From: Centruroides vittatus
Lineage: Eukaryota
DNA length: 64,000 nucleotides
Assembly: GCF_030686945.1 (NCBI RefSeq)
Contig: NW_027122681.1
Coordinates: 1,802,938-1,866,937 of the forward strand
Direction: 5' to 3'
Shown here: positions 26,216-64,000 of the stretch, one piece after another
Layout: every line of letters starts with the position of its first letter
Numbering within the stretch: position 1 is the stretch's first letter
Translations under genes and position numbers: made by a program
Notes under the pieces: model-generated
Database searches by the model: none
Seen by the model: the letters and a program-made list of their open reading frames with translations, nothing else
Told to the model about the DNA's origin: nothing

Positions 26216-26651
26216 CTAAAATTAAGTTAAAATATACATTTCAATATTATAATACTAATAATATTAGATTAACAGATTTTCATTTACTATAATTATTACA
26301 AACTGTATAAATAATTGCCAAGCCCCATATTAATATATAAATACATAACTGCCATATTTTTCAGACTATATTGTGATTGCTAATTCATTACATAAACTAA
26401 ATAGTTTAGTTTAAAGGCAGACACTTAAAATTCATCTTCTATTAAATTTATTAACCAGAAATTAATTTAGATTAAAATTAATAATTTAGAATTTTATGGA
26501 AGAAAAGAATGACTCAGAATGGACTTGATTTTGCATCTTTAATACATCATGCAGATGCTTTACCAGTTATACTGCATGTAACTCCATCTGATCTTTTCTT
26601 CCAGACATGTGTTATTCAAAGTCATATAGTCAAACATGTTAATTATGTGAG

Positions 26652-27356: not shown

Positions 27357-27826
27357 TGGCGCAGTCTTCGACAGGATATTCTTGCAAATCTTCAGGAGAT
27401 TCTCGCAAGACGACAGGAAAGTACTGAGCCCACATTCGAGATTTGGATACTTACGGAAGGAAGAGTAGCCGGAAATCAAGGCGGAACAGAACTCAACATT
27501 GGTAAGTTGTTCTTGATTATTTGTATTCAGAATGCCGGGACGCGGAAGGACTCAAGGGTCAAAAAGGGGTATGCCATGTTCTGAGGATCAGGGAGGTCGG
27601 GCTGATCTTAGTCAATCCCAGGAAATGGATACGGAGCCAGAAAGGGAAATTTTGGACCCCGAGGTCGAGGTTACAGACAACCAGAATGAAATAGAGGGGA
27701 CGTGAGTCTGACGAGTTAGAGAAGTTACGCTTGCAGATTAGACTAGCCGAAATAGACTACTAAAAACAAAGAAATAGAAATTAAAAACAGGAAATTGAAA
27801 GGGACATTAGAAAAAGCGAAATCGAA

Positions 27827-29500
27827 ATGGAAATTAGAAAAAGCGAAATAGAGTTAGAGAGAGATCGTCTACGAAGTGAATCTAGGACTAGTAATAACTC
27901 TGAGCTGGGAGGTAACTTGGATAGCCTAGCTAGAAAAATCAGATGGGCTTTACCTAAAATGCCAGACAAGGAGGCGGAAGTACCGTCGTGGTTTCGGGCC
28001 GTAGAGGTAGTGTTACAAACGTACGATGTGCCGGAAGAACTTCAGGGGCAGCTAGTTTTAACGGTGCTATCGGAGAAATGTAAAACGGCGTTAAATAGGC
28101 TTACGGCAGACGAGATCAGGGATTACCAAACCTTAAAACAATTCCTACTAGACGAGCTGAGACTGTCTGCCGCTGAGTACCTCAAAGAGTTCACTTCCGC
28201 TGAAAAGGGAAGCAAAGAAACGTGGCCCCAATTTGCAGCTAGAATGGAGGATCTGTATCGGTATTATCTGAATAGTAGAGGCGTAGATTCTTTTGGGCAG
28301 CTAACAAAATTAGTGGTCTCGGATCACCTTAAGACTAAGTTAGATGCCGACACTAAGCGTTACGTTTTGTTGCAAGAAGGTAAAGGCTGGTTCCCACCGG
28401 AAGAGTTAGCCAGATACGCAGATAAGCATGCGGAGGCTGTGGGAAAGGGTGACGTTAGACTTATACCTGAACGCGAAAGGGATAGAACAGTCACTAGAAC
28501 TGGAGGCATGAGCGCGAACAATGGAGGATCAAGAATGAGATGCTATGTCTGTGACCAAATGGGTCATCTCAGAAGGGATTGTCCTCGGAGACATATTAAA
28601 GAGGAAGGACCGAAGTCTAAAGCAACGCGAGCGGTTAAAATAGACGAAACGGTAGAATCGGACGAGCAGCTAGTAGCTAGGGTAAAGGTGAACAGGGAAA
28701 CGATCAGCGGAAACGTACCCGTTAGTGTAAACAAAAATCTCCTGCTCGCTTGTAAAGATAATAAATTTTCTGCAATAGTGGACACGGGGGTAGATATGAC
28801 GGTTATTAGGAAGTCTGTAGTGCCTGTTTACGTGTCGCGGGCAGCGAGAAAGGTTAAGTTGATCAGCGCATTTGGGCAGCAGGTATCAGCAGTGTTAGCG
28901 ACAATACCTGTAAGACTAGAAGGGAGGTCGAATAAAAAGAAAAATGATTACGCTCCAGCCTTGATAACTTGCGCATTAACTGACGAACTTAGCTGCGGTA
29001 CAGATGCATTACTTTCGGCAGCCGATTATTGCGTTTTGAGGAGAGTCGAACGGACGAAAACGAATAGGCGACGGAAACCAGTCGCGAGGGTTACGGTTGC
29101 GAAAGAAAGCGGGGAAAATAGGACGAGCCCCACGACAAATAAAAAGAGCGATGCTAGAAAATATTGTAAGGCGGGTCATGGTCGGCAGGCAAGCGTTCCC
29201 CTTCGGCTAGTTGACCGCACGCCTCTTAAGGAACAATCGGTCCCTAGGGCATTGGTAGCGCGGGATAATAAGGCAAAAATCGCGCACAGAAGAGGGAAAA
29301 ATCGTAATGAGATCGACGTACTATCCAGACGGGAAATCAGGAGCAATCCGGAACCCCCAGATCGTACAGACAAGGCAGTTATGTCGGTATTAAGTCCTTC
29401 GGATAGATGTAATCAGTATCTACCAGGCGATTCTGAATGCAATGTGACGGGACAATTTGCCGAAGATGTTATTGACTGTGTAAAATATCTTTTTCTGTAA
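27827..29500 (+). CDS. Gag-protease ORF (557 aa) of the truncated LTR element: capsid-like domain, CCHC zinc knuckle (CYVCDQMGHLRRDCP), aspartic protease (IVDTGVDMTVI); no RT or integrase
   Basis: ORF 27827..29500. The ORF ends 187 nt before the 3' LTR. A polypurine tract ggtgggagg lies immediately before the 3' LTR. Confidence 0.8.
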   Translation: MEIRKSEIELERDRLRSESRTSNNSELGGNLDSLARKIRWALPKMPDKEAEVPSWFRAVEVVLQTYDVPEELQGQLVLTVLSEKCKTALNRLTADEIRDYQTLKQFLLDELRLSAAEYLKEFTSAEKGSKETWPQFAARMEDLYRYYLNSRGVDSFGQLTKLVVSDHLKTKLDADTKRYVLLQEGKGWFPPEELARYADKHAEAVGKGDVRLIPERERDRTVTRTGGMSANNGGSRMRCYVCDQMGHLRRDCPRRHIKEEGPKSKATRAVKIDETVESDEQLVARVKVNRETISGNVPVSVNKNLLLACKDNKFSAIVDTGVDMTVIRKSVVPVYVSRAARKVKLISAFGQQVSAVLATIPVRLEGRSNKKKNDYAPALITCALTDELSCGTDALLSAADYCVLRRVERTKTNRRRKPVARVTVAKESGENRTSPTTNKKSDARKYCKAGHGRQASVPLRLVDRTPLKEQSVPRALVARDNKAKIAHRRGKNRNEIDVLSRREIRSNPEPPDRTDKAVMSVLSPSDRCNQYLPGDSECNVTGQFAEDVIDCVKYLFL

Positions 29501-29687
29501 AATATTAAATACTGTATATTGTTAGTATAGTTTATTATTTGTAGTAACTTGATCCTTGTAATAAGAAAGGAGGAAGTGTAGTGTAACAAAATAATTTGTA
29601 CGGTAAAGATTGCTGTGTGTCGCGGTAGTATTGTTTATGTCAAACAGGCTTTTGTTGAAGCGCAGTTTGAACCTTGTCGGTGGGAGG

Positions 29688-30392
29688 TGTAAAGGTCGCC
29701 TTTGGTGGCCTGTGTCAAAGAAACCGCCCGACTGAGGTAATTGCTCCCACCTGGGGTCGGGGCCATAAACGGCCGGAAGGATCAAAGGTGGAGCGTCTCC
29801 ACTTAAGGGACAATGTGTTGGCCACGTGCCGGCCAGCTTGAGAAAACAAGAATAAATAAAGCACGGACGCAAATGTGAGCTACGTCGGCGGGAGATAGGG
29901 CGGACGTCTTGGAAGGCTCTAAGAAGGGGAAGGAAGTGATTGGTCGCAGGAGGCAGTGCCAGAATCCCTTAAATTGGAAGGGTGGCAAAAAAGCGAGGAG
30001 AAAGGGCGAGGGACCTGGTACGTGGCGGTCTCTAACAACAGGCAGACCTTTGAGGCGGATAGAGAGAGTGTTCTCCTCTTGGAAAGTCCTCTGGAGAAAG
30101 GTTGTTGTAGAGACGGACGGCCACGAGGTTAAGCCATCTCCGGAAGAGTGACTCGTGTTCCCAGGCCAGCTAAGTCGACGTGCTGCATCACAGCTTCGAT
30201 ACTGTAGTGTACGTAATGCTATTACATAGTGTATATCTTTGTAAATATTTGTAAATAAACTGTATATAACTAATTATCGAGTGTGGAGGTGTGACTTTCA
30301 ACGGACCATCAAACGGACAATCTCGAGGCGTAAAGAACGACTCGGGACGGAACATTTGTAAAGATCACGAGACGAGTAAGAAGGATCTTCAC
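29688..30392 (+). repeat. 3' LTR (705 bp) of the same element
   Basis: Direct repeat of 26652-27356. A TGTGAG target-site duplication is present (26646-26651 and 30393-30398). Confidence 0.85.
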
Positions 30393-30394
30393 TG

Positions 30395-31640
30395 TGAGTA
30401 CTGGGATGACATATGTGTTTATTGCTTTAACTGTGTTCTGAGTATAGGATTTAACTTAATTTGGTATTCATTAATTAATCTTTGCTTTATTTATGTATGT
30501 TCTGTTAGTTTGGCCTGTTGGAATCCTAAATACTTGTAGAACTCACCTTCTTCCATGGATTCAATAACGTCTCCATCTCCAAGTGGAAAATCTTCTTTCT
30601 TCAGGATTTCTTTTTCTATGTGAAGTGGGCATTTATTTAGGCCAAACTCCATTTGTATGTCCTTGGTGTATGAATGTGTGATTTGTAGGAGTTGATGAAG
30701 TTGTTTTTGTGTAGATGCATAAAGTTTTATGTCATCCATGTACATGAGATGTGACAGTATAAACTGTGTTGTTTTTTCATGTCTGATATTGTAGCCATAT
30801 TGTGGGTTGTTTAACATGTTGGATAATGGGTTCAAGGCTAGGCAGAACCAGAGAGGACTCAAGGAATCTCCTTGAAAAATTCCTCATCTAATAAATATTT
30901 GGTCTGTTTGTATAAAAGTGTTATGAACCCTGAGATGTATTGTTGTTCTCCAATGCTGCATGGTGTTTTGGAAGAATGCAATGAGTGATGGATGTATTTT
31001 GTACATATGTAGAATATGTATTAGCCAACTGTGTGGAACACTGTTGAATGCTTTTCTGTAGTCTGTATATGCCATGTGTATGTTTGTGTTGTTTGTGTGC
31101 TTGCTGTAGAATGACTGAATCTATGAGTAACTGTTCTTTGCATCCCCTGTGATTTCTATCCTTTTTGTTGTTCCTTTTTGTTGTTCTGTTAGAATGTCGT
31201 GTTCTTCAACATGTTTGTATACTTTGTTTGTGATACAGGATTCAATAATTTGAAGAGTGTTGGAAGACATGTAATTGGTCTGTACTGTGGTATTGTTGTT
31301 TTTAGGTTTCATGTAGGCGATGCCCTGAGTAAGAAATTTTGGCATGTCTTGTGGATTGATGATGATGTGTGTTAGGTGTTTAGCTAGTTCCTGGTGCAGT
31401 GATGTAAATTTTTTGTACCAGAAATTGTGAATGTTGTCTACACCAGTTGTGTGTTCTGTTAACAGAGTAGTGGATGTTGTGTACGTTTATTTCAACATAG
31501 GGCATAGTTGGTATGTTATGCAAGTTTTTGTTCTCCTCCTCAATCCAGCCAGCATCAGCATTGTGTGTAACAGCACTGGACCAAAGAGAAGACCAGTAAG
31601 TTAAGAGTTCTTCTTCTGTTGATGTGCCACTGTGCTGTGT
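30395..31640 (-). mobile_element. Non-LTR (LINE) retrotransposon RT pseudogene, frameshifted, interrupted by the LTR-element insertion
   Basis: Three consecutive minus-strand ORFs in different frames carry RT motifs: 31121..31345; 30884..31075 (DYRKAFNSVPHSWL); 30491..30862 (FILSHLMYMDDIKLYAS…EFGLNKCPL, the YxDD motif). The sequence likely continues at about 26220-26651 on the other side of the insertion. Confidence 0.7.
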
Positions 31641-44824: not shown

Positions 44825-45146
44825 TATAATAATCCAACAATCACCTAAATATTCAGGCTATAATATGGTTATAATCAAATGATTAATACAAATAAATTTG
44901 GTACTAGAGGTAAGTGTTAGGCACCATCTCTTATCTAAATTAATAATTATAATTTAATAAATAATTTAAAACCTTCTGGAAGAAAATAACTGACCCAGGG
45001 TGGGACTTGAACCCGCAACCTCCGCTTGCCATGCGGTGTGCTACCAATTGTGCCACCTGGACCCCAAGCCAGCCTTTGCTTCCATTAATTATTTAATTAT
45101 AGCCATATTATAGCCCGAATATTTAGGCGATCGTTGGATTATTTAA
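44825..45146. mobile_element. Inverted-repeat (~60 bp arms, ~88% identity) element whose ~200-bp loop contains the tRNA-like unit
   Basis: 44827-44886 (aataatccaacaatcacctaaatattcaggctataatatggttataatcaaatgattaat) is approximately the reverse complement of 45084-45146 (attaattatttaattatagccatattatagcccgaatatttaggcgatcgttggattattta). Confidence 0.6.
44992..45063 (-). tRNA. tRNA-like sequence (anticodon-loop reading GGC / Ala-like) with Pol III A box (TGGCACAATTGG) and B box (GGTTCAAGTCC); probably a pseudo-tRNA or SINE head
   Basis: Minus strand reads GGTCCAGGTGGCACAATTGGTAGCACACCGCATGGCAAGCGGAGGTTGCGGGTTCAAGTCCCACCCTGGGTC. The acceptor pairs (two G-U wobbles) and the T-arm and anticodon stem-loop form. 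The D-stem is not complementary (GCAC/GCAC), so it is unlikely to be a functional tRNA. Confidence 0.4.
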
Positions 45147-47679: not shown

Positions 47680-48034
47680 CTTTTTAGTAACCATATACGA
47701 TACAATTCCCCCGTTATCAATGATTTTTCTCCTCAATCCTTGTTTCTCTTTCATTTTCATTGAGAGAGGCATATCTAAAACTATTTCATAGTCATTAAAT
47801 AATTTTCTTTCTATGTGTTTACATAAAATTTCTTCTTGACTTGGCGAATCTTCCACAATATTTTCCAAAACTTCTGCAATTTCCTTATTAAATGAACTTC
47901 TGTCTAGAATGTTCTTGGTTAATTTATCATTAAAAACTTCAGTTTTGTAATTTGAATCTCTCTGTAGTTTTCCAGAAAGACCCAAGAAAGGAGTCAAATT
48001 TCCAATAAATGTTTCAAGTAGTGCCATGTTTAAT
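47680..48034 (-). CDS. PARP4: PARP4-like exon: N-terminus and first half of the BRCT domain (…MALLETFIGNL…QGLRRKIIDNGGIVSYMVTKK)
   Basis: ORF 47668..48099 (minus) has an internal ATG at 48027 in Kozak context aaacATGG. The donor is AAAAAG|gtaagttt at 47680. The BRCT-like GG motif is present (RRKIIDNGGIVSY). Confidence 0.6.
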
Positions 48035-48189
48035 CTATAAAAACACAAAGAATTATAAATTATTATAATTAAAAGAAGCAGAATATTGATTACAAGCATT
48101 GTAACAAATTTTTATTATTAAATTAGAGTCAATAAATTAATTAAATCAATTATTTTATTCTAATAAATTTGATATTTACTTTATGTAAA

Positions 48190-48735
48190 ATATTTCCAAA
48201 CGAGCAATTATACATTGTGACAATACCACAATAAATAATGCACTTAAGTTTAGTAGTGTCTTACCCATGTGTACTGTACATCATACTTCTCCTGTTAACA
48301 AAGAAGTCATGCCAATTATCTATCTAACTCCGTTCAGGAAAAATTTTTGAATTGAAATAACATTACTTCAGACCCAAAACAGAAGTTTGTATATAGTATA
48401 CTGGCACAATGAAGTGACGCTTAGTCAACACTGGGCGAGTTTTTCCATCTTTATTTAGTTAGATAAACAAAAGACTAACTAAATAAAGATGGAAAACTTG
48501 CCCAGTGTTGATTAAGCATCACTTCATTGTGCCAGTATACCAAATACAAATAACAACACGGTTTCGACAGTACCAAAGTTTGTATATAGTTAATCAGAGC
48601 CTCCTGCCTCTAGGCTTTTTATATCTGATCTTGACTTTCATCTAATATTGTTCTTGATATTAAGGAAAGACAGACAGACAGTCGACAGTGGGAATTTATA
48701 GGTCATTTTTTCATATTGCAGACCAATAAACTGAC
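48190..48735. repeat. Copy of a recurrent composite SINE/foldback repeat, with its internal hairpin expanded to a ~150-bp near-perfect palindrome (48388-48545)
   Basis: Family motifs seen: the head tagtagtg(t/g)cttgcccct-tacatcatacttctcctgataacaa…tcatctatctaactc; the middle cagaagtttgtatatag / aagctttccatatctg; the tail gacagacagacaacagtgggaatttataggtctgcaatttgaaaattgtagcc. The palindrome reads tatactggcacaatgaagtgacgcttagtcaacactgggcgagtttttccatctttatttagtta|…|taactaaataaagatggaaaacttgcccagtgttgattaagcatcacttcattgtgccagtata. Confidence 0.6.
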
Positions 48736-50337
48736 CAAGCCTTTTTACTTATCATTAAAGAAGTTATCTTGCTTTATCAATGAAGTTAAATATATAAATG
48801 TTCTTTAAACTGTATCAAATATTTTTTTTCCACATATTTTTCAGAAATAAAATAAAATCCAAACAAATATAATTATCATGATATAGCAGCTCAACTTCCT
48901 ACCTGTAGACAAATTACTTCATATTTAATTATTAACTTAGGCTAATTGTAACCCAATAATTTAGCATACGGTTCAGCTCTAGTCAAAAATTGGGTTTGTT
49001 GAGTTATCGTTTATATATAAAACTGTCACTAACATTTCATATAAACAAGTTCATTTCAAAATGGATTCTTTTTCATTTTTCTTCAATACCTTCCTGTACA
49101 CCAATTATTTATTGTTAAATTTAATATTTAAGATAGCCAATATCTGACCAATCAAAAATAACAACTAGGCATCAGCCTACTGCTCTGAGGGCCATGGAGT
49201 CAAATCCAGATGGATAAAAACCCCCAAAAATTATGGATGATCTGTCCCAGAAGTGTCAAGTTTCATTCCTCACCATCCAGCAGCCCCATTTAAATCTAGA
49301 AAAATGGTCCTGCTAGTGATCACAGGACATAAAGAACAGGAAAAAACCAAATTTTTTAAAATTAGAATTTCGTAATAACAAATATATTTAAAATAGTTAC
49401 ATAACTATTTTTATACAAATATTATCATCTTGTATATTTCTATATATTGATAAAGTGATACATTTGTTTGTATTTAATTTGATGTTATTGTTTCCCACTT
49501 TATAATGATGATAAATAACATGTCATCATTAAACAATTATTACACATCTTTATATGTTTTGCAATTCATCCTAAATCTGACAAATTATCTAGAATCACAG
49601 ATTTGCAATAACTTTATAATAATTGCAATTTTTATAATTGATAATTAAATTATGAAATCATAAATATAAATTCATATAATTTTTAAACAATTTTTATTTT
49701 GGCTTTTTCCATCATTAAGAGAGACTTTTCCCAAACCCATCATGTAGAGCTGGAATTAGACTTGTTGTGGCCCTAAGCTATATAACCTGTAATTAGGCAC
49801 TTCTCCTCCACTAAATAATGATACACGAAATAATGTGAAGCCCTAAACCAGTGTTCCATGAACTTTTTGCAAGTGTTCTGCAAAATTATGAAAATGGCAT
49901 ACTAGCCGAAACTACGATTGAGGTTTAGCGTAAATTCGCAGCTTACAACCCAGACAAGGTGCAACATGCATTTTGCAGTGAACTATCTTTGTTACCTTTG
50001 CAAAGACAAGGAACTCATACTATATTCAAGCAATGTTCTTTGTATAGAGAATCCCTACTAGCAACATTAAAATCTACAATAGACAAAGTTGTAAATATGC
50101 TAAATTACATCAACCCAAGATTATTAAAAACATGACTTTTTAAAAAATTTGAATACCTATGGAACTCAGTATGTATCTTTACTTTTGCACATAGAAGTAA
50201 TATGGTTCTTCAGGGGTAAAATAATATGTCCATTTTTAGAACTTCAGAATTTTTTTTCTAAAATGAAGATACAAATTTGTCCTAAAAATAATATTTGGTT
50301 TAAAATCAATATTTGGTTTTCTAAAATGGCATATTTA

Positions 50338-50893
50338 TCTGATATGAACAGTCACAAACAAAACCTTTTTTTTACCAGTATTGAACTTAAACTAAAACTA
50401 AACTTCCGAATGTTTTCAGCCTTCACCAAGGCCTGCTTCAGATGCTGAACTAAATTGGCTTCCTACTTGGACTGTTAGAACAATGCTGTTCGATTTAACA
50501 TTGCATATATCAAATTTTATCCTTCTACCTGACTCCGCTCGAATTCCTAAAACAGGTAGCTCCACACATGCGCAATAGTCTCACTGTCTTTAAAGTTAAT
50601 ACAGTTGCCTCTTAAGTTGGCTTTATAAATCTCCAAGGCCTCCAGGTGGCGAATATGATCTATTTGAATTATTTGAATATGATCATCGAATTAATCTGGT
50701 GTTCTGGAAGTCCACACTAACTTCTGGGTTGGTGGCGTACATAGACAAGGCAGTGGTGTGTCTGTTGTTTGTAAGGTCGGATTGACGTTCACATATCATA
50801 TTGCGAGTTGAACGTATGGTTGAGCCAATATAAATTAAGTCCCTATAAATTAAGTTCAATACTGGTAAAAAAAGGTTTTGTTTGTGACTGTTC
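50338..50893. mobile_element. MITE-like element with ~50-bp terminal inverted repeats (tgaacagtcacaaacaaaaccttttttttaccagtattgaacttaa)
   Basis: 50341-50392 is approximately the reverse complement of 50840-50893. Confidence 0.55.
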
Positions 50894-51893
50894 ATTTCTC
50901 ACTCCAGTATTTATAAGAAGACTGTTATTTTATCTGATATTTTTAATTACTCAAATTGCATTAATACAAATGTGCTGAGAAAAAATGAAAATATTTTGAC
51001 ACCTAGTGACAAATGTCAGCATTTCAGGAAAAGTATTTCTTTGGAAATATCACATATTAGAAAAAATATAATACTTTTTTTCTTATTTATTTTTGTTATA
51101 ACAAAATATTTAACACTATTGAAAGTTATTTTCCTTCCTTAAATATAGAAAATTATGATTGGTTATGAAAGCCGTCTGGCAGGGTTAATACATCAAGTTG
51201 GGAATTTTCGATACAACAAGAACAATTGATCACCTCGTCAACAGATTGTATGTACATTAAAAACGAAATTCTCCTAACTCAAAAGTTTTGGATTTTTGCC
51301 CACGCAAATAACATTTTGTTCAGTTTTTATTAATGTTTGTATATTTGTTTTAGCTCAGATCTCACATTCACCAATATAAAAACTAAAAAACAAGAAAGAT
51401 TTACTAATATAAACGAAGAAATGAAAATAGCCGTGTCACATATTAGACTCGATATTGATATAATCTTCAAAATCCAAAAACTCATGTATTTATAATTAAT
51501 TTAAAGAAGTCCCATTTTCATAAAATGTTATTCTCATTACAGTTTTTACAAATGTAATATTTTAAATTAATGTCATTTTACTTTTACTTATTCCTTGACG
51601 TGATCTAACTCACGTGTATTGGGTTGATAATCGGTTCAGATAGCCTTTACCCATTTGGGTAATCCTATTTCACACTGAGTACGATTATATGTCGGTGGCC
51701 GACTCGTAAGGACCAATCGTAACGGGTGTTAGAAATCGTTTGGTAGAAGTTTATTTTATCGACACCAACGTTTTTCTTCTTAATTATATTTATAATAGAG
51801 ACATACATGCTAGACATGTCCAAAACACATCGAATATATGAAGGGCAACTCATTTAAAAAACGCTATAAACAAAAAATCATAGGACTACTTAC

Positions 51894-51910
51894 CGACTGT
51901 GCACCGCCAT
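51894..51910 (-). CDS. Putative first coding exon of the PARP4-like gene (M-A-V-H-S-R..., 17 nt, then GTAAGT donor)
   Basis: Minus strand reads caagctaaagcgATGGCGGTGCACAGTCG|gtaagtag. It lies in a CpG-rich region with three CACGTG E-boxes. Its phase-2 end joins in frame to a tttttatag acceptor 7 nt upstream of the exon-A ATG (CG+A = Arg, then L-N-M-A-L-L-E-T-F). It could instead be 5' UTR with an in-frame upstream ATG. Confidence 0.35.
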
Positions 51911-51959
51911 CGCTTTAGCTTGTTTTGGTCGTGGAGCTACACATTGGAGGGCGGACGCG

Positions 51960-52100
51960 CACACAGCGTGTCACGTGACCTGGATTCGACGTCAGTCGCT
52001 CACGTGACTACAGCTCTGACGCGTTTCCGGACAACTTTTTCTTGTGGCGGAAGAATTCGTTCTGTTTGCACTATACCTCGCAGGCGTCACGTGATAGAGT
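51960..52100 (-). promoter_or_regulatory. CpG-rich core promoter with three palindromic E-boxes (CACGTG at 51972, 52001, 52088) and a CRE-like TGACGTCA half-site (51988), upstream of putative exon 1
   Basis: The sequence reads gtgtcacgtgacctggattcgacgtcagtcgctcacgtgactac…gcgtcacgtgatag. It is GC-rich in an otherwise roughly 25% GC region and lies immediately 5' of the ATG…GTAAGT first exon. An identical copy lies in inverted orientation at 58575-58715. Confidence 0.45.
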
Positions 52101-54751
52101 AAAGACACCCTACGGTGCCCACATTAATAGCGGTGCTTCGCTGGGCTGCTGTTTGTAGACATTTGCGAACGACGGTGAAAAAAAAGAGACGCCCGTAATA
52201 TCGTGATCTATAATTTTAAAATATGCGTTTTTAGAGAGAAAATTTAAAAGATGGGTTCCAATAGCATCCAAAGTAGCTGCGAAAAAAACTCGAGACGACA
52301 CTTATATATATTGACGCGCGTTTTCACAACTTGTAAATTTTCATTCATAAAACTACATAATGGACACAAAAACCCGCGTGGACAGCCCGCGGACCAGTTT
52401 GACGAACTTTGCTTAGTTACGCTTCCGTAACACCGTAACATTCTATAACGAAATTCACAAGCTAAGGTTTGACAACGACGATTTATTTTTCGAGATTAAC
52501 TTGTTAAAAAGAGAACAATCAAATTACTTTAAAATTCAGATTAAATGTTTATAACTATAAATTTATAAACACGTATGTTTTACATAGCCTAACTAATCCT
52601 TTAAATTTAAAAATGTAAAGTTATATAACAATAATTTATATGTAAGATGTGGATCAATAGGCTACTACATAAAGACTTTTCTGTTTGGTAATGTTTTACT
52701 TAAAAACAACAGATGCAACACGCGTCAGAGCGAAGTTCTCACACCCAGTTTTTTTTTCATTCCAATACCTCGCGGACAAATACTTTTGTGAATTAAAATA
52801 AAAGTAATGATACGGCGGATCACAGTTTGAGTACGTCCGGTTAGACCGCCAGCGACTTTCTTTTAATTTCTTTTATGAATCGCACAAATTTTATTTTTTA
52901 TCAGACTTTTCAATTAAATACGCAAATATCTGCAGCTTTTAACACCAAAAGGTATACAAAAATGATTCCATATTGAAAGAAATCGGAAGTAACGTAGTTG
53001 ACAGAAAATTGCCAACCCGGATGTATTTAAAGAACGAATAACGTAACCTTTCTAGATATTTGGTGAATTCTTAATGCCTAAATGTAACGAAAGCGTTTGC
53101 CTGGTAAAAGTTGTGCTCGATATCTAAAAAGGTTTGGTTATTCATTTTTTAGTAACGCCGGCTTAAAAACAAATCTTTAAACTTGGAAATTTTTCCTACT
53201 GCTTCGAGTCGAATAAAGTCGGATAAATGAAAGACTTCTGAACGCGTTAAGCGACAATCAATCCTAAAAAACAGTAAAATCTTATAATTTACTTGTGGTT
53301 GTAGCACCCTTAAATCTTTTCTAGAAAATTACTCTTTTAAAAGAGATTTTGTAGAAAAAGTAGTGTATATTTTTAATATTACTGTTAACGGTTAAACGTT
53401 TAAGAAAGGAATACAAACACAGCATGAAGTAACGTAAAACATGTATTATGTTACATAATTCATTTTTACATAAATATTTACATATACAAGCACCATAATG
53501 CGAGTCCATTTCGAAAACTGCGCAGATAAAGTTTTCTTGTACTGTGTAGACTCAGGAAATAACAAAAATGACACATTTTCACGAATTGCTCGTAAGCAAA
53601 ACATAGAGAATACATTGAGGGAAAAATAGTTTTTTTTAATGATGTTAGTAAACTTGTAGGCCTTATACTAAATGAACAAGGAACAATATCGTCTGCTTGG
53701 ATTAATTAAAGTATTTTCTTCAACTATCACTATTCTAGCTGTACAGTACATATGACACACATGACAGTAATTCTCTCTTTAGGTAGGAGTAGCTGACCAT
53801 TTACAGTCCAGCAGGGGATCCATTTCAGAATGAGTGTAAATGGAGTATAAAGTAATGAAATTTAAGTTCTATTTTCTTTAAGGTGACCAGATTTTAACAT
53901 TTGTGAAGCGGGACAAAATTGACGGGGGAGTAGGAAGTTGTTGTCTTCTTGAAAAAAATTGTTCTAGATCAAAATTTTATTATCAAAGAACGCAAAAATT
54001 GTATTGTTATATTTTTTTAAATTTCAATGTATGTAAAATTTACAAATATAATAAATTTAGATACTATTATAAATCTTTAAAAACTCTTCTTTTTTCGCAT
54101 ATTTCTCAGTCGAGTGAATTTTTTAGTAGATTGCTGTCGTTTAAAATGTCATTAAATTTTTCGCAAGAGTTTAAATTATATTTCACACATAATATGGCTT
54201 TCAAAGTCTCAACACTTAATTGTGATTAATCAGATATCCACGAAAGCGCCCTTATTAAACTTGTAAATAAAACAGTGTTAATCTAAAATTTTACATAGTT
54301 GTATCGAAGAATATTTACAGTATTATATTATGAAATGAAATTTTACTAGTAACGTCTAAAACTGTTTTAAAATGTATTTATTTGATGTTTCAATAAATTT
54401 TCTTAACTATTTTCTATCTGAAATAAGATTTCTCCTTCTGCAGTAAATGTAATATTTTCTAAATGAATGAAATAAAATAAAACTAAGTTCGTACTTTAAT
54501 ACGTTTATACGCGCTTCAGCGCTTCTTATACTTAATCATTTAGTATAATCAGGGATGGGCAACCTTTTTCTATGTAACGGCCGTATTTAAAAACTTTTGA
54601 ACTAACGCGGGCTCCAAACGAGAGAAAAGAGAAAAAAGAAATGCCAGTAAATCGCAATTATTTATTAATATGTAATCATAAATTAGCATAGCTGCTTTTT
54701 AATATTTATATAAACGATATTATAGAAACCATTCCCGAAAATAATAATATA

Positions 54752-55237
54752 TTGTTGGCAGAAGATATTGTTATAACCTATGCGGGTTGGAATCTTCAAT
54801 TAATTAAAAATAACATGAATTTATTGTTGGCTAAATTAATTAAATATATGGTGAATAATAACTTTAGAATACATGAGAATAAAACAAAATATGTTTATTT
54901 ATCAAATAAGAACAAAAAAGTCAACTTAGATGATATACAAGTAAGAATTAATAATAAACGTATTCAAAGAGTTAATACCGTAAAACATTTCGGTATTGAA
55001 ATTGATGATAAATTACGATGGAACAATCATATAAATAATCTAACATTGTCTTTATCTAGATTTATTGGAATATTAAAAAGAATACTGAGTTTCATAAATT
55101 TTGAGACTGTTTTGCGTTTATATCACGCTTGTATGGAACCAAACTTCGATATGGTATTTCCATATGGGATACAGCTTCTGGCTGGCAGGAAAAAATCTTA
55201 TATATATTCATATTTCAAACATTTTTTTGAAGTTTAA
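54752..55237 (+). mobile_element. LINE RT C-terminal fragment (…AEDIVITYAG…VKHFGIEIDDKLRWNNHINNL…LYHACMEPNFD)
   Basis: ORF 54752..55237 shows the conserved post-YxDD LINE RT motifs (ADDIVI; KYLG-I-D-KL-W; LY-x-P). Confidence 0.6.
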
Positions 55238-57779
55238 ATAAATGTTTGGCTTATATTATAGTTCAGAAGCTTAGTTATTAGTAATTATTCTTAATCTTAA
55301 GCTTAGTATAAGATTCTAGCTAATATTATTCTTAATCTTAACTCATCACTTATATAATAAGTGATAAGTTAAATAAACACCTTAGGACCTCTAACTATAA
55401 CTGTCAATGAAAAAAAAAAATTTGATTCTACCAAGAGTTTAGCACTGTTTTGGCGAGATGCACCGATCTACCGACTGATGTATAACTGGAATTCTTTAAA
55501 AGCATATAAAGATCTGAGAACTTATGGGCAATTTAAACAAGTTGTTAAAAAATTGAACGATGTCTAATTTTGTGTATTATTTATTTTTGTTGTTCTTTTT
55601 TTGTTTGTTGATTGTTTATTTTCTGTATATGTATTTTTGTCGACACTTGGAAAAAGCCAATGGCCATAATGTCGTTTAGTCAAATAAACAAATAAATAAA
55701 CATATACTGTACTTAATTTAGCTTCTAGAAATGATGTAAACGTTATATATCAGAAATGTTTGGTTAAATATTAGTCACTGCTAGTTTTAAATTATTTTCG
55801 ATGTGTCTGCTAGCCGGTTTCTTGTTTTAATTCTTACTAAATTCATTACGAAAAACTATTCACATGAAAAAGTTGTAGAAAATAATCTAATTCACAAAAC
55901 AACACATTTACTTATAGCTGAGACAATTTTATTGAGAAAACTAACGTTTTCGGCTTACTCAAGAAGCCATCTTCAGGTTTTAACTTTCGAAAAAAGGAAC
56001 ATTATCATTCCATTAAAAGAATACAATTATTTGAAAAAATTCAAACCATTAGTAACGGACAAAAATAAAAAATAAAAACAAAAAGAAAGAACATGGTAAT
56101 ATAAATAAATAAATATACAATAAAATCGTTATAGTGGGAATAAGAAGTAAAAAAAACGAAAATAAAAATGATTCCACTGGTGATACTTTTTTAAAAAAGT
56201 GGCAGGTGTTGTTTTGTGAATTAGACTAATTATTGGCTGAGCTAGTATCTGCTTTATGTAGAAAATAACGTTGGAATTTTTGCTGCATACTTCCTTAAGC
56301 TGGGAAATTGATGTATTTATTCAAATATTTTACACATTTTAGGCGTCTAATTAGTCGAGTTCAAATTCCCAAAACTTGTAAAACTGTCAGTGGACCTTCA
56401 AAGGATTCCACTCAAACGTTATAAAGAGTCTGTAATGAAGATTGACAGGTAGCTATGGGGTGTAAGAAAACAAATTATTTTTCCAAATAATTTCAAAAGA
56501 AAATATTTTAATTAATCCAAGCAGACGATATTATTATTACGAGTTACACCCGCAATATTCTGATACCAATTTCATCAAAGAATTAACTGACAACAAATAC
56601 TGTATACGTAACGATCGAAGATAAATTACAATATAACGTTCACATTAAACACTTCCCATATGGTCAAATTTTATAAAAATAATTTTATTTACAAGCTTAG
56701 GAATGCGATTAGGCAAGACCTCGAATGGGATTTTAGTTAACCTCTGAATAACAGAAAAACGTAATTCTCGTGCGCATGTTTGTTCTTGTAAATCATTAAC
56801 ATTTTAACTATTGCGATAGCAAATACCTATAAATTAATAATTATCATCTGTATTTTATCAATCGTCACCATTTCTGTGCTTCTCATAACCATGTAAGTTA
56901 AAAAATTTTACAAATTTTGTAACAGTGCAACTAAACAGTTACATGACAGAGTTGATAAGGGACTCGAAGTTCGAAAAATGCATACTCTAGGGGAAAAAAT
57001 GTGATTTTCTAAAGCTTGTCCTGTTTCTAATTGATGGTATAATAAGTCTAGCGAGAAAGATCTACATTGCGCATTTTAAATAACTAAACTTTATAAAATA
57101 ACGTGTTTTTAAAAAGACGCTCTTTTAAAAATAATTCTGTGTTGACGAGTCATTTCTCTTCGTCATTGTCATCCTTTGAAATAAAAAAGTATCATATACG
57201 TATTTTGATTTTGAACTAATAGGAAAGGCATCTTGATTTGGCTTTCTTGGTTTGACGGCACGATTATAACAAACAGTATCGTGTAACTTCTTACGTTCGA
57301 GTCGTGTATTGTCTGCCACTTAATACATGTTTGAATCAGTTTTTAATTACTTTGCCTATTTACGATATTTAAATAAAAATGTGAGTTTTACTCCTTCCAC
57401 CTTTTCCTAGCCAAAATTGTAATTTTTTCGATCACCGATATGAAATTTCGTTACGCATTGTTCCCGTGAGTGAAGTTGTATCTTACCAAACTAAGATATT
57501 AATTACAATATTCATTGGGCTAGTCCATGTTTAGATTTTTTAATTCCTATTACTTTTATCTTTTTTAGGTGAAATATAAACGTGTACTGTTTAGTAACGA
57601 AATAGTTTTATTGTCGGCATATTCTTATCCACGTTCTAAACTAGATTTATTATATCAGTCGAATAGGAATTACACGATATTCAGGAAGTCGTCATTTTTT
57701 ATTTCATTTATACATCTTTAATTTTAACATTATCAATCATAAATTGATTTGTCTATGATAACTATAACTTATTTTATAA

Positions 57780-58935
57780 TATGCGATTCATAAAAGAAAT
57801 TAAAAGAAAGTCGCTGGCGGTCTAACCGGACGTACTCAAACTGTGATCCGCCGTATCATTACTTTTATTTTAATTCACAAAAGTATTTGTCCGCGAGGTA
57901 TTGGAATGAAAAAAAAACTGGGTGTGAGAACTTCGCTCTGACGCGTGTTGCGTCTGTTGTTTTTAAGTAAAACATTACCAAACAGAAAAGTCTTTATGTA
58001 GTAGCCTATTGATCCACATCTTACATATAAATTATTGTTATATAACTTTACATTTTTAAATTTAAAGGATTAGTTAGGCTATGTAAAACATACGTGTTTA
58101 TAAATTTATAGTTATAAACATTTAATCTGAATTTTAAAGTAATTTGATTGTTCTCTTTTTAACAAGTTAATCTCGAAAAATAAATCGTCGTTGTCAAACC
58201 TTAGCTTGTGAATTTCGTTATAGAATGTTACGGTGTTACGGAAGCGTAACTAAGCAAAGTTCGTCAAACTGGTCCGCGGGCTGTCCGCGCGGGTTTTTGT
58301 GTCCATTATGTAGTTTTATGAATGAAAATTTACAAGTTGTGAAAACGCGCGTCAATATATATAAGTGTCGTCTCGAGTTTTTTTCGCAGCTACTTTGGAT
58401 GCTATTGGAACCCATCTTTTAAATTTTCTCTCTAAAAACGCATATTTTAAAATTATAGATCACGATATTACGGGCGTCTCTTTTTTTTCACCGTCGTTCG
58501 CAAATGTCTACAAACAGCAGCCCAGCGAAGCACCGCTATTAATGTGGGCACCGTAGGGTGTCTTTACTCTATCACGTGACGCCTGCGAGGTATAGTGCAA
58601 ACAGAACGAATTCTTCCGCCACAAGAAAAAGTTGTCCGGAAACGCGTCAGAGCTGTAGTCACGTGAGCGACTGACGTCGAATCCAGGTCACGTGACACGC
58701 TGTGTGCGCGTCCGCCCTCCAATGTGTAGCTCCACGACCAAAACAAGCTAAAGCGATGGCGGTGCACAGTCGGTAAGTAGTCCTATGATTTTTTGTTTAT
58801 AGCGTTTTTTAAATGAGTTGCCCTTCATATATTCGATGTGTTTTGGACATGTCTAGCATGTATGTCTCTATTATAAATATAATTAAGAAGAAAAACGTTG
58901 GTGTCGATAAAATAAACTTCTACCAATCGTTTTAA
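57780..58935. repeat. Right arm of the inverted duplication (reverse complement of 51725-52880); spacer 52881-57779 (4.9 kb)
   Basis: See the left arm. The spacer contains a LINE RT fragment (54752-55237). Confidence 0.85.
58756..58772 (+). CDS. Duplicate copy of the putative first coding exon (ATGGCGGTGCACAGTCG|gtaagtag), plus-strand, in the right arm of the inverted duplication
   Basis: Identical to the minus-strand copy at 51894-51910, with the same E-box promoter immediately upstream (58575-58715). The downstream acceptor exon was not identified. Confidence 0.25.
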
Positions 58936-59029
58936 TATGATCTTATTTCGTTTATAAATTCTTACGAAAAGTCTAAATAATACCATCTTTTCTCGTTACG
59001 TCGATAATGTTTTTTAATATAAGGAAATG

Positions 59030-59160
59030 GTTAGTAAGTTTACAAGCGGTTACAGTGGCAGTCGCGCGCGATATCCTAGCAAAGCGACGGGAGCCGCGAC
59101 CTCACGCGCGATACTCTTAGCAGAGCGACGCGCGCCGCAATCTCGCGCGACCCGATTTTG
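59030..59160. repeat. CpG-dense tandem duplication (cgcgcgata(t/c)c-tagca(a/g)agcgacg…gccgc(g/a)a(c/t)ctc(a/g)cgcg)
   Basis: Two tandem units of about 60 bp, strongly CpG-rich, in an AT-rich context. Confidence 0.4.
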
Positions 59161-59539
59161 CGGGTAAATAAAAATGCGTATTATTTTCGTTAAAGTTATT
59201 TATTAATAATTATCTACGTTATTGAAATATTAATATAGCCATAAAAATGGTTGGAATTCGAAACCAACGAATAAATTATTGCTTTAAGTAATCTTTATAA
59301 CAGAAACTAAAAATAGTATCGATATTTTAATTTATTTTATTATATACTATAATTAATATTAATAATCGAAGACTTAGAAATCGTTTAATTCTATTAAATT
59401 GTCCTTTCTTTTAAACTGCTCGAATTGCCCTTTCTTTTTCCTTTACTCGGATCGAGTCGATTAAGCCTAAAGCTGTATTAAAAGCGGTATTAAAGGTGGT
59501 CGCTCTCGCTCGTTTACCTCGCTTTCGTTTCGAAGAATA

Positions 59540-59795
59540 ATTGGTAAGGAGGGGGGACCCCCCAAATTATAGACCCCCCTGTGCGAAAACAAAGGGAAAA
59601 ACAAAATTTTGGTATATTACGTAGGTGTCACGTGACCGGGATGACGTAGGTATAGTCCTCCCGATTCGATGGCGCGGCCCGATTTTGGGGGGGCTATATC
59701 TCGTGAGGGGTCGCCCGTAGGGGTGTGGTTCATTAGACATTTTTTGATCGCACAGGGGGGGGTCTATCGTTTGGGGGGTTAACCCCCCCCTTCCC
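59540..59795. repeat. Short inverted-repeat element built from G/C homopolymer runs (gggggaccccccaaattatagacccccctgtgcg … cgcacaggggggggtctat…gggggttaaccccccccc), enclosing an E-box + CRE-like site (gtgtcacgtgaccgggatgacgtagg)
   Basis: atagacccccctgtgcg (59567-59583) matches the reverse complement of cgcacaggggggggtctat (59748-59766). There are multiple G6-8/C6-9 runs. Confidence 0.45.
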
Positions 59796-60354
59796 CCTCC
59801 TAGAATGTTATATTTATCTATATTTAGTTTATTTACAAAGCGATTAATGATGTTTAAACGTAACTTTTTGTAGTTTATAATAATAGTTAATTAATATTAT
59901 AGAAAGAAACTCTTACCTTTCTTATGCCGTGTCACTTCTCTCGAATTCAACAGTAAGTACAGACGATTACACCACTAATTGAAACCAACCAAAACATCGC
60001 TTAGCGCCATCTTGCGTAAAAAATACTACAATTTAAAAAATGTTTTTTTTTTTTTAATTTAAAAATTACATAGAATAATTTATCAATTCTAAGCAAATTT
60101 AAATCGTTCTTGAAATAATTTATTAAATCGAGCATATAACTGTCGAAAATGTCTTAATTTTTGAGTGATATTGGTTGGTTTATTTGTATACGGCAACGTG
60201 ACACGTGAGCGATCTGTCAAAGTTGGTACTACCTCTCGAGAGGATTTTCTATGGCATACCGAACCCTATATAGCAGTTGGCGTGCCGTGACATTTGATGA
60301 CAGGGAAGCTGTGTTTCTGTAAGAAGCCGACTTCCAGGGGCAATCAGTTAATTG

Positions 60355-61090
60355 TGCGTCAGTGATGGTCTAGGGCAGTGGTTCTTAACCTTTTTATATT
60401 CGGGGCCCACCAAATATTTCATAATTTTTTTGTGACCCCCATTTTTTAATAATAATTTATATTTGATAATTTGATAATTTATCTATAATAAATTGATTTT
60501 TTATTATTGCTTTATTTTTTATATAATAAATGTAAATCATAACTTTATTATTTCATTATCTATTTAAATAACATTCAAACTTCACAATTAAACATGAAAA
60601 CTCATTAATTTTTAACAGAAAATAAAATAAGAAACATGTCGATAAATCGATCCAATGTCGATGCTAAAACTAAACTAAAACTAAAACGCCCACTTGTCGT
60701 AAGGATTTTGCATAACTTTTGCAAAAATATTTAAATTTTCAAAGCCTACTATTTTTCCTAATTATTTTAAAATTCCAAGCATTAATAGTTTCTTAAAATT
60801 GCTTTGGAATAAAAGAAGTAAATACTGCGGTGTAAGTAGCATATTTACATTTATTTCTTCTGTACTAACAAAGTTGTATGTAGGAAGAAATACAAAATAA
60901 ATAAATAAAAACTAAATAGGAAAAGTTTATCTTTCTTATTTCACTTTTCAATACGATATTCGGATTATACATCAATTTTCTTTTTATTATATTCCGAAGG
61001 AAATTTTGCATAATTTGGCGGCCCCCGGCAAACTTCTTATGGACCCCCAGGGGCCGCGGCCCCCTGTTAAGAATCACTGGTCTAGGGTCC
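60355..61090. mobile_element. MITE-like non-autonomous DNA transposon (~735 bp) with ~70-bp terminal inverted repeats (ggtctagggcagtggttcttaacctttttatattcggggcccacc…)
   Basis: The left end at 60363-60430 is approximately the reverse complement of the right end at 61000-61086 (…ggcggcccccggcaaacttcttatggacccccaggggccgcggccccctgttaagaatcactggtctaggg). Confidence 0.55.
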
Positions 61091-62242
61091 ATTCGTATTC
61101 ATTTGTTCGATAAGCCAGTAAAAACTGTAGACTTCTCTAAATGTATTTTTAATATCACAATTACATTCTGAATCGCTAGCCACGATATAAGGGCTAAAAT
61201 TAAAAATAAATTATAAAAACTTACTCGGTGAAATAAAATGTGCGGTGGATATACATACCTGGTACAATGTATTGTTCGATTGTATTAATATACTTTTAAA
61301 GAAAATTATAATTAAAATATAGCTTTGTAAAGAAACGTACATAAAAATAACATAAAATAGTCTTTACTTTTTAAATCTTAAAACAATCCACTTAGTCAAA
61401 TATCTTGATACGAGTAGCTAATGGATGGAACTAGTGACGGTCCAGGTAGGTGTGTAGTGAGTGTGTGCGTGCCAAATCCCGAGGGTGCCGATACCGGTCA
61501 ATGTCAAATGCCTCTTTTGTCGCATCACTAGTATATCTCAAAGGACGCCACAGGGCTGTTGTAAATTTTAAACGTTTCTCACCGTAGCTGTAAAAATCTA
61601 ACTATGTTAAACTTAATAGTCATTCGTTTTCTAACTAATTCGTTTTAATACCAGGTGTACACAGAAATCAGTTTCCCACTGTACTGAGCGAGTGATTGGT
61701 TCTGTTAAGCTTTTGTTGAAGTAAAATTCTGGCTCTTTCAACAGGGTTTTATTTATGTCCCCATTCCCTAATCTCTTAATTATTTAGTCACTTCTTAAGT
61801 AGAAATAAGTCGAAACCAGTTACTTTGTACCTGAATATCTGTAGTCTTGGGAAAACAGTGGAAAGACAAATTTTTATGACAACGGATATATAAATCGTAA
61901 ATTTAAGGAAAATAAATTCTAGAGCTTTTTTTTGTACCATTGTATGTACTGTACGTCTCATTCATTAAATTTGGTTGTAAATGATGCTGCCAAAGTAACA
62001 GTTAATTTTTAACACTGTACTAGAATTGTACACGTTTTTTCTGCATCCCCTTACAGATGGGACATACTAAATCGTAATATCACCGGTTTAACATCGAAAT
62101 CCGTAAGTAATATAAGATGGGAGAGCGGAATAAACGCAGAATAAATATATCAAATATTTTAATGGAGTTTTTTTAAACTCCTGTCAACTATACAGAACTA
62201 TCATAAAAACGTGCCAGTAAACTCCTATCGGTTGGGTTGTTA

Positions 62243-62562
62243 TAAATCTAGTCTAGGGTGGGCAACCCTTTTTATAACATGGGCCAGAATAAATTTTACG
62301 TTTTTTTCCGCGCCGTAGTAGTTAATTGACGCCTTCTTGTGACTCGTAATTTTTTTAGTCTGCAAATATGAAATAAATAAATAAAAAGTTAATTACTACA
62401 TTTATTTCTCTTATCGTTTTCGAAAATTACAAAGAATTGGAAAAATAACTAATTAATAGTTATTTTTCCAATTTAATAATCTATTAAAGATCTCGCGGGC
62501 CGGATAGAAACTTTTCGCCAGCCGTAGCTGGCCCGCGGGTTGCCCGCCGTTGATCTAGTCTG
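62243..62562. mobile_element. Related MITE (~320 bp) with GGGCAACCC-type terminal inverted repeats (tctagtctagggtgggcaaccc … gggttgcccgccgttgatctagtctg)
   Basis: Terminal inverted repeats at 62243-62265 and 62537-62562. A third, solo end of the same type lies at 54543-54600 (cagggatgggcaacctttttctatgtaacggcc). Confidence 0.45.
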
Positions 62563-64000
62563 CTCATGATTCACATAATCGGGCGAGGGTGGCCGAATAT
62601 CTAGCAGGCGGCTAACAGCCCACAACCGCTCCGGGATATAAAGTCGCGTACTCTTTACGAGTGTGTCGCTTCTACCAGCTAAACCGGGTGAGGTTGGTGC
62701 ACTGTAAACCGCATGTGCTAATGCCTATATAATCTGGCTGATTGGAGACTGACCCGGTTTCGACATTCCTTCCGCCACCGAATTATTCGAATATACAATA
62801 GCAATCTTATCGTTTTTTTTCACATGTAGTATAGAAATTTGTAAAAGATACATAATGCAGTTATAATAAAATATTAATTTTAATTAATTCAAAGTACGTT
62901 AAAATATGAAAATTTATATTTTATAAAATTCAAGGGAAGGTCATTGGAAGGTGGAATCGGCGCTTCCATCGCTTCCAATGACGGCACGCCACTGCTATAT
63001 AGGTGTTACAAACCTGTGAATAAAACCTGGAAAACTCCAAGCGGTTTAGCCAATTGGCGAGGCACGAACACAGGACCAGTGTTCGGTGGTTTAATCCACT
63101 GTTGGGCACTCCACATAGATGTTTTCTCCCTCTTTTTATTCCTTAATAATCACTGGAAATGGATGAAAAACATTTCTGTAAAAATTAATTTTATATTCAG
63201 TGATTTAACAGGAAATTAAGTTTTGGTAGGGCTAACAAAAATTACAGAAATACTATTCTATTCTTTTAGAAGTAATAAGCCCCATAAGATGAATCTAAAA
63301 TAATGTTTTCAGTCTTTCTAACAAATAATAATTTGCTCTAGTAGAATATTTAATACTTTATTAAAATTTATGCCTATAATGTGCTATATGAAATATTAAT
63401 CGTATCACCATGATCGTTCTCAAATTAGAACAATACATTTTATGTTTCTGTTTTTACCTGAATAAAGCAATAGATTCAACACATTTATTGCTTCGTGTTT
63501 CAGTGTAATTGACAAAAAACTGCTTGAAAAAAATTGTACTTAAAAACATATGAAATTTCTGTCGGGTGTTCTTAGTCTGTGGAAAACATTATCTTTAGAA
63601 CTTGGATAAAATTTTCACACGTTAAGCCACAAAGCCACGTCAAGGCGACACCCATTTTGTGGTAGTTTTTTGATTTCCAGAAACTGACCCCGATTGCTCG
63701 ACAGAAAACAATCGGGGAAAAAAACTGGATATTCGTTGCTATTTGATTTATTCCGTAAACCAAAATAAACTACTAAAATTTAATTTTTATGTCATTTTCT
63801 TTAAACTTTCCGATTGAAAAATGCAAATTTTCAATACAAATCTTTAATTTAAAAATAAACATAGCAACGAATAATAGATTATCTTTAAAACATAAATAAC
63901 TATAAATTATAAATATAGAGAGGTTTCAAGGTCGCATGTCACGTGATAAAACACCGTTTGCTCCGCCCATTCGCCATTTTTGTGGTAGTTTTCGCTCGCT

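Follow-up and report, generated by a model that had tools for sequence, protein, structure and literature searches.

The stretch analysed here, hereafter the window, comprises 64,000 nucleotides of Centruroides vittatus (assembly GCF_030686945.1, contig NW_027122681.1, positions 1,802,938 to 1,866,937). It contains a PARP4-like gene, which occupies the minus strand from about 48 kb to below 4.3 kb, and, upstream of this gene, a long and almost perfect inverted repeat. The concatenated catalytic and VIT exons of the gene match PARP4 proteins (E 1e-86, at most 48% identity), and the matched proteins carry PF00644, PF13757, PF08487 and vWA families, in keeping with the vault PARP layout of a PARP catalytic domain, then VIT and vWA domains, with a BRCT at the N terminus; its BRCT-like and vWA-like exons were identified by reading. 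Each arm of the repeat bears a promoter-like module followed by a short ATG-to-splice-donor unit, one directed towards the PARP4-like gene and the other into intergenic DNA. What the DNA shows directly is the repeat, what it contains and where it lies, at the boundary of a methylation footprint; promoter activity, exon use and a mechanism of inversion are our inferences. We tentatively favour an origin in which the native 5' end of the PARP4-like gene was duplicated in situ and in inverted orientation, either recently or at an earlier time with gene conversion keeping the copies identical. The parts of the repeat are as follows.

51740 to 52884, minus strand: left arm, its module directed left, to exon 2 of the PARP4-like gene
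52885 to 57781, no strand: spacer, unique, 4,897 bp, AT-rich and non-coding
57782 to 58926, plus strand: right arm, its module directed right, into 58.9-64 kb

A repeat search found one inverted pair within 50-61 kb, its arms 4,897 nt apart, and blastn against the whole window detected no other copy. The repeat search placed the arm limits at 51733-52884 and 57782-58933, and the 7 extra bases there match at only 5 of 7 positions; base-by-base comparison sets the true homology at 51740-52884 and 57782-58926, which are reverse complements over 1,145 bp. The inverted duplication that the sequence-only reading had proposed is borne out by all of these comparisons, its outer limits of 51725 and 58935 being a few bases too wide (homology 51740-58926). 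Two mismatches separate the arms (52379/58287 and 52714/57952), and both are CpG in the right arm and TpG in the left. Directly beyond the outer and inner ends the match drops to random, and sensitive searches detected diverged homology neither within the spacer nor from one outer flank to the other, except for an unrelated 39-bp inverted repeat of the spacer. Such sharp ends, with no weaker homology beyond them, indicate one discrete event. An older and larger palindrome with a conversion tract is ruled out by the same absence of diverged homology past the arm ends or between the outer flanks. The 64-kb window holds no further copy of an arm or of a terminus, as judged by blastn at word sizes of 7-9 and by a terminal 21-mer with 3 mismatches. 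Arm divergence amounts to 0.17% (2/1,145), and that of a young long terminal repeat (LTR) pair of the same window to 0.14% (1/708); without conversion the arms would be similar in age to that pair, and with arm-to-arm conversion their age would not be fixed by divergence.

The near-perfect identity and the single occurrence of the repeat would also be compatible with an assembly artefact, that is, a 1.1-kb segment misplaced in inverted orientation, for example through a chimeric read, and the two CpG/TpG differences could then be basecalling errors at methylated sites. However, foldback chimeras give little or no spacer and a mirrored flank, whereas here a unique 4.9-kb spacer lies between arms with unrelated outer flanks; the copies are separated by two substitutions and their boundaries are clean. 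We regard this as the most improbable of the explanations considered. The observation is real and belongs to an ordinary class of structural variant; its functional reading is plausible, and its origin, whether by duplication or by insertion, would be unsurprising to a specialist.

The outward-facing modules of the two arms consist of a motif cluster and an ATG-donor unit each.

51943 to 52093, no strand: left motif cluster (ATTGG, three E-boxes and GACGTCA), from the motif search
58573 to 58723, no strand: right motif cluster (three E-boxes, TGACGT and CCAAT), from the motif search
51888 to 51910, minus strand: ATGGCGGTGCACAGTCG at 51910-51894, then a GTAAGT donor at 51893-51888; candidate exon 1 of the PARP4-like gene
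58756 to 58778, plus strand: ATGGCGGTGCACAGTCG at 58756-58772, then a GTAAGT donor at 58773-58778; orphan copy

Within 120 bp, each arm contains three CACGTG E-boxes, at 51972, 52001 and 52088 on the left and mirrored at 58573, 58660 and 58689 on the right, all of which take the form TCACGTGA. The hexamer occurs 20 times in the whole window against 4.5 expected, a count reached by no shuffle. A site resembling the cAMP response element (CRE), GACGTCA at 51988, is mirrored by TGACGT at 58672, and the CCAAT box at 58719 in the right arm by ATTGG at 51943 in the left. ATGGCGG is similar to a YY1-type core-promoter motif. The motif coordinates agree with what had first been read from the letters, namely three E-boxes, a CRE-like site and ATGGCGGTGCACAGTCG followed by GTAAGT in each arm, and two outward-facing ATG...GTAAGT units 4.9 kb apart. 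GTAAGT is rare in the window (0.27 per kb per strand), and the chance of meeting it about 50 bp past a CCAAT/E-box cluster is roughly 0.01-0.03.

The motif vocabulary of the arms recurs in adjacent intergenic DNA that is not repeated, at 51596-51622, 59629, 60202 and 63940. Just outside the left arm, the segment 51596-51721 comprises TGACGTGA at 51596, CACGTG at 51611, ATTGG at 51618, a CCAAT box and GACCAATCG at 51712; ACCAATCGT is seen again at the right junction, 58922-58930.

The left module points to the second exon of the PARP4-like gene across a proposed first intron.

47680 to 48034, minus strand: exon 2 of the PARP4-like gene, encoding ..MALLETF...VTKK, with acceptor AG at 48036-48035, internal ATG at 48027-48025 and donor after 47680
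48035 to 51893, minus strand: proposed intron 1, 3,859 nt, CpG-depleted to about 51.25 kb and holding a miniature inverted-repeat transposable element (MITE)

The acceptor of exon 2 is ttttatag, and joining 51894 to 48034 gives MAVHSRLNMALLETF, which reads in frame as M A V H S R L N M A L L E T F; in-frame splicing to MALLETF through this acceptor is possible, as the sequence-only reading held. As evidence for a PARP4 5' end in the left copy, the join is weak, because an in-frame outcome has a prior of 1/3, exon 2 has an ATG of its own, and roughly 30% of the GTAAGT sites of the AT-rich window have an open phase-2 ATG within the 90 nt upstream. The earlier claim of a promoter with a first coding exon stands as regards the ATG...GTAAGT unit and the in-frame join; the coding status of the 17-nt unit is not established, exon 2 being able to supply the start. 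No homologue of the exon-2 peptide was found in a search for relatives.

The dinucleotide composition provides a separate line of evidence. The observed-to-expected ratio of CpG (CpG o/e) ranges from 0.38 to 0.54 over the PARP4 gene body and is 0.33 over 48100-50340, accompanied by an excess of TpG/CpA (1.2-1.27). Farther right, 51251-51739 has a ratio of 1.39, the arms 1.62-1.66, the spacer 1.23 and 58.9-64 kb 1.2-1.55. Chelicerate methylation is described as concentrated in gene bodies (PMC6409797). Taken with that pattern, the CpG depletion of 48.1-51.25 kb suggests that transcription has long run through this segment and begins somewhere to its right, beyond about 51.25 kb, where the left arm is situated; this composition makes the left copy a credible 5' end for the PARP4-like gene. 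The switch itself is sharp: positions 1-51250 are depleted and 51251-64000 replete, with the step at 51250/51251, which fits gene-body methylation ending at the PARP4 5' end. The MITE within the proposed intron 1 (50341-50898) measures about 560 bp and has terminal inverted repeats of ~50 bp (GATATGAACAGTCACAAACAAAACC...).

As far as the 5 kb to its right show, the right copy is an orphan. A tblastn search of 52885-64000 recovered no PARP4-like exon, and the open reading frames (ORFs) of the right flank gave no Pfam match, in agreement with the earlier statement that no matching downstream exon follows in the window. CpG o/e remains at least 1 to the window end on this side, which indicates that no gene-body footprint lies to the right of the right arm. 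Promoter, ATG and donor of the right copy are identical to those of the left, which could reflect two genes arranged head to head with paralogous first exons, the right copy being the true promoter and exon 1 of a gene whose next exon lies beyond 64 kb, and the two 5' ends being kept identical by conversion. Introns here can exceed 5 kb, as the retroelement-filled introns of the PARP4-like gene illustrate, and arm-to-arm gene conversion is known to keep the arms of palindromes near-identical. Nevertheless, neither a PARP4-like nor any other recognisable exon was found in 58.9-64 kb, the diverged homology outside the arms that an old duplication with a conversion tract should leave is missing, the CpG ratio shows no gene-body footprint up to the window end, and another promoter-like cluster occurs at 63.93-63.99 kb. 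We consider a head-to-head pair very unlikely.

In the origin that we favour, the duplicated piece would comprise about 975 bp of CpG-rich upstream DNA, the start region, the 17-nt ATG exon and, from intron 1, its initial 153 nt. Most probably, the upstream block would have undergone a small inversion with one staggered break, and the filling in of the staggered region on both fragments would have produced an inverted duplication at both ends of the inverted segment. The left copy would have stayed joined to intron 1 and exon 2 and would act as the PARP4 promoter, with transcripts starting at its promoter of USF/TFE-type E-box, CRE and CCAAT motifs and spliced from 51894 to 48034. The right copy would be a by-product facing non-coding intergenic DNA, with at most an unproductive or as yet unseen transcript. 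Such an in-situ origin would explain the resemblance of the arms to a host promoter and an outward-facing first exon of host type, the recurrence of their motifs in adjacent single-copy DNA, and the make-up of the spacer, which is ordinary repeat debris with a decayed fragment of a long interspersed nuclear element (LINE) and no transposase-like domain.

This proposition has a precedent in Drosophila, where inversions with staggered breaks leave inverted duplications of unique sequence of 46 bp-1.9 kb (Ranz et al, 2007; PMC1885836). The two situations share a unique, non-repetitive sequence, often the 5' part of a gene, which is present twice and inverted at the ends of the segment, as well as the length of the copies, 1,145 bp here being within the Drosophila range, and no transposon is needed. 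Within the 64-kb window only the two arms match each other, as the pair of copies left by a staggered break would. The Drosophila cases differ in being large inversions with a mean copy identity of about 88%, against a 4.9-kb segment and 99.8% here (PMC1885836). Exact look-ups of the ORFs of the arms, of the PARP4 exons and of the retroelements returned no match, and an exact 24-mer from the arm core is absent from metagenome contigs.

Several points weigh against the in-situ origin, the first being a pair of short direct repeats at the outer junctions.

51735 to 51740, no strand: left copy of the 6-bp direct repeat ATCGTT, candidate target-site duplication
58926 to 58931, no strand: right copy of the 6-bp direct repeat ATCGTT, candidate target-site duplication

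ATCGTT brackets the whole 7.19-kb unit, whose termini are perfectly complementary (TGGTAG...CTACCA). Among two million random junction pairs drawn from the window, the chance of a flanking repeat of at least 6 bp was 1.3e-3, and for the ATCGTT repeat it is about 3e-3 when the one-base ambiguity of the boundary is allowed for. A direct repeat around an element with inverted ends is a classical mark of insertion; the ATCGTT repeat with the TG...CA termini is such an insertion signature, a feature that the sequence-only reading overlooked. Neither the staggered-break nor the template-switch model predicts this repeat, and its presence (p about 1e-3) sets the locus apart from the Drosophila inversions. 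Furthermore, junction microhomology is 0-1 nt, with no positive signature of a replicative template switch; exon 2 has its own ATG, 7 nt past the acceptor; and the promoter-like cluster at 51596-51717, outside the left arm, could on its motif content be the ancestral PARP4 promoter. The case for a replicative template switch with microhomology is itself weakened by the 0-1 nt at both candidate junctions, a length compatible with end joining.

We therefore weighed an insertion, a rival that the sequence-only reading had not listed, in which the whole 7,185-bp unit (51741-58925) would be a DNA transposon of the non-autonomous, foldback-like kind and of unclassified family, or else some other palindromic segment that was mobilised, with terminal inverted repeats (TIRs) of 1,144 bp, TG...CA termini and ATCGTT as a 6-bp target-site duplication. 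It would have landed some 200 bp upstream of the ancestral core promoter of PARP4, in a promoter zone rich in CpG, and the empty site would read GAAATCGTT directly followed by TTAATATG, with a single ATCGTT. The promoter-like modules would then belong to the element; PARP4 may have recruited the left module as a 5' exon, or this module may have no bearing on the gene. We rank this origin second, as a possible explanation of which we remain doubtful. It would account for both the hexamer and the TG...CA ends, and under it the arms need not be the ancestral PARP4 promoter, for which role the cluster at 51596-51717 is available. The arms are complementary to their very ends, and the exact 6-bp repeat lies directly outside both termini, where the target-site duplication of a long-TIR element belongs. 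The genome is well supplied with TIR elements (MITEs at 50341-50898 and 60370-61085), and many DNA transposons insert preferentially at the 5' ends of genes. In addition, a 250-bp element at 59548-59788, bounded by inverted repeats, contains an E-box/ACGT module like that of the arms (GTGTCACGTGACC.GGAT..GACGT), with about 22/26 positions shared in a hand alignment; blastn gives 88% over 25 bp with a non-significant E of 0.047. This resemblance raises the possibility that small mobile elements of the genome carry E-box modules.

Other properties fit an insertion less well. A six-frame search found neither a transposase nor any other Pfam domain in the interior, which is ordinary repeat debris, although non-autonomous copies lack a transposase anyway; in the arms Tandem Repeats Finder (TRF) reports only two trivial repeats of 8-10 bp in 2 copies, and not the tandem sub-repeats of some TIRs; and no second copy or terminal match was found within the 64 kb. 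The promoter and ATG-donor unit faces outward 150 bp from the tips, where it serves no gene of the element and resembles a host first exon; a unit so placed and in phase with exon 2 would arise by chance with a probability of about 0.01-0.03.

The unit also fits none of the superfamilies checked, namely Galileo/P, Ginger and Polinton. TIRs of more than 1 kb are known from Galileo, a member of the P superfamily, where they reach 1.25 kb and are longest in non-autonomous copies (PMC3573991). Galileo elements further have 7-bp duplications and, in several subfamilies, tandem repeats in the TIRs (PMC3573991). The resemblance lies in TIRs of about 1.1-1.25 kb, longest in non-autonomous copies, and in a short flanking duplication; the differences are a 6-bp instead of a 7-bp duplication, the absence of sub-repeats and of a THAP or transposase remnant, and a TIR interior that here resembles an outward-facing host promoter. 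The target-site duplication of P or hAT elements measures 8 bp, against 6 bp here. Ginger elements have TGTNR termini, a 4-bp target-site duplication and TIRs of 40-270 bp (PMC2836005). The present unit departs from all three, with TGGTA termini, a 6-bp repeat and 1,144-bp TIRs. Polinton/Maverick elements, in the account attributed to Kapitonov and Jurka in 2006, reportedly duplicate 6 bp of the target site and have TIRs that range from hundreds of bp to beyond 1 kb, and in both respects the unit agrees with them. They are 15-20 kb long, carry genes for a protein-primed polymerase, an integrase and a capsid, and end in AG...CT, whereas the present unit is 7.2 kb, non-coding, without Pfam domains and ends in TG...CA. 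LTR retrotransposons and DIRS elements are ruled out, the repeats being inverted, the interior lacking an element-type reverse transcriptase (RT), RNase H, integrase or recombinase, and a flanking direct repeat being present. An inverted pair of LTRs is likewise ruled out despite the TG...CA arms, which show no similarity to the LTRs of the window, no primer-binding site next to their ends and no duplication around each arm. Rough likelihood estimates for the in-situ duplication and for the long-TIR insertion cancel within their uncertainty and cannot separate the two.

A further proposal shifts the emphasis from origin to effect. The palindromic unit could be a mobile or recent donor of a promoter and first exon, supplying the 5' exon of PARP4 and an orphan start, and/or it could give rise to hairpin RNA (hpRNA) processed into small RNAs against the PARP4 promoter and 5' exon. 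The locus shares with hpRNA loci and conversion-kept palindromes its long near-identical inverted arms, a unique loop and one gene-derived arm. Read-through RNA would form a 1.1-kb duplex here, and only about 17-60 nt of the arms would be present in mature PARP4 mRNA, a difference from hpRNA loci. We consider this proposal unlikely.

Two features stand out in the spacer that separates the arms.

54692 to 55706, plus strand: 5'-truncated non-LTR (LINE) fragment, with an ORF for the C-terminal part of RT at 54692-55234, another stretch of ORF at 55373-55564 and a tail of AAAT type at 55682-55706
53682 to 56535, no strand: segment between 39-bp inverted repeats (53682-53720 and 56497-56535, 95%)

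Translated in six frames with stops masked, the spacer (52885-57781) contains no Pfam domain at E<=0.05. The LINE ORF at 54692-55234 has 181 codons, and its RVT_1 match is weak by itself (E 9e-4). An exhaustive representative search retrieved 13,476 homologues, 944 of them at E<=1e-10; the long ones are ORF2 proteins with an APE endonuclease and RVT_1, aligned at about residues 670-835, which upholds the LINE fragment first recognised by eye. No similarity was found between this ORF and the other RT fragment of the window or PDB chains. By its bounding repeats, the segment 53682-56535 would be a nested element or else a pair of fragments from a single repeat family. The absence of any Rfam match at E<=1 rules out a structured RNA in the arms or spacer and, together with the absence of RT/GIY-YIG, Hammerhead-bearing Penelope-like repeats. 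MITE-like elements or ends of one type occur at 60370-61085, 62240-62560 and 54543-54620 (CTAGGGCAGTGGTTCTTAACC / CTAGGGTGGGCAACCC / CAGGGATGGGCAACC...), the last being a lone end inside the spacer.

Further observations concern the right flank. The element at 59548-59788 has G/C-run termini (GGAGGGGGGACCCCCCAAATTATAGACCCCCC...) and a core, GTGTCACGTGACCGGGATGACGT, that is close to the E-box/CRE module of the arms, GTGTCACGTGACCTGGATTCGACGT. A CpG-dense 41-bp tandem repeat of 2.1 copies (CGCGCGATATCCTAGCAAAGCGACG...) lies at 59065-59149, 140 bp outside the right arm, with a local CpG o/e of ~2.5; judging from its composition, it may be another regulatory element. At the window edge, 63930-64000 contains a promoter-like cluster (TGTCACGTGAT ... 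GCTCCGCCCATTCGCCATTTTTGTGG, with a YY1-like GCCAT motif), which suggests a neighbouring gene starting near or beyond 64 kb.

The PARP4-like gene itself houses several retroelements. An intact Gypsy gag-pol ORF of 1,840 aa lies at 13803-19325 on the minus strand, and the best match of its polyprotein is Centruroides sculpturatus LOC111624612 (74% identical). The young LTR element, at 26651-30394 in an intron, has 708-bp LTRs one base apart (99.86%) and a gag-like ORF of 557 aa (27827-29500) with no pol; a LINE RT fragment (30494-31486) follows it. Another intron includes, at 44991-45063 on the minus strand, a tRNA-Ala-like sequence with anticodon GGC, which scores 29.5 bits in Rfam against a threshold of 29 and may be a tRNA-derived short interspersed nuclear element (SINE) or a pseudogene.

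Whichever origin applies, the repeat has consequences for annotation, since it affects the choice of the first exon of PARP4, could lead to a spurious gene start on the right and bears on how repeat maskers handle the arms. By its geometry, the perfect 1.1-kb inverted repeat could also invert the 4.9-kb block, or form a long hairpin if it is transcribed through. If the long-TIR insertion is true, a mobile unit has landed in a housekeeping-type promoter, possibly donating a 5' exon. If instead the left copy is the working promoter of PARP4, the locus would offer a snapshot of a very recent rearrangement in which a full promoter and first exon were copied towards naive DNA, and the promoter copy aimed at that DNA would constitute raw material for a new transcript.

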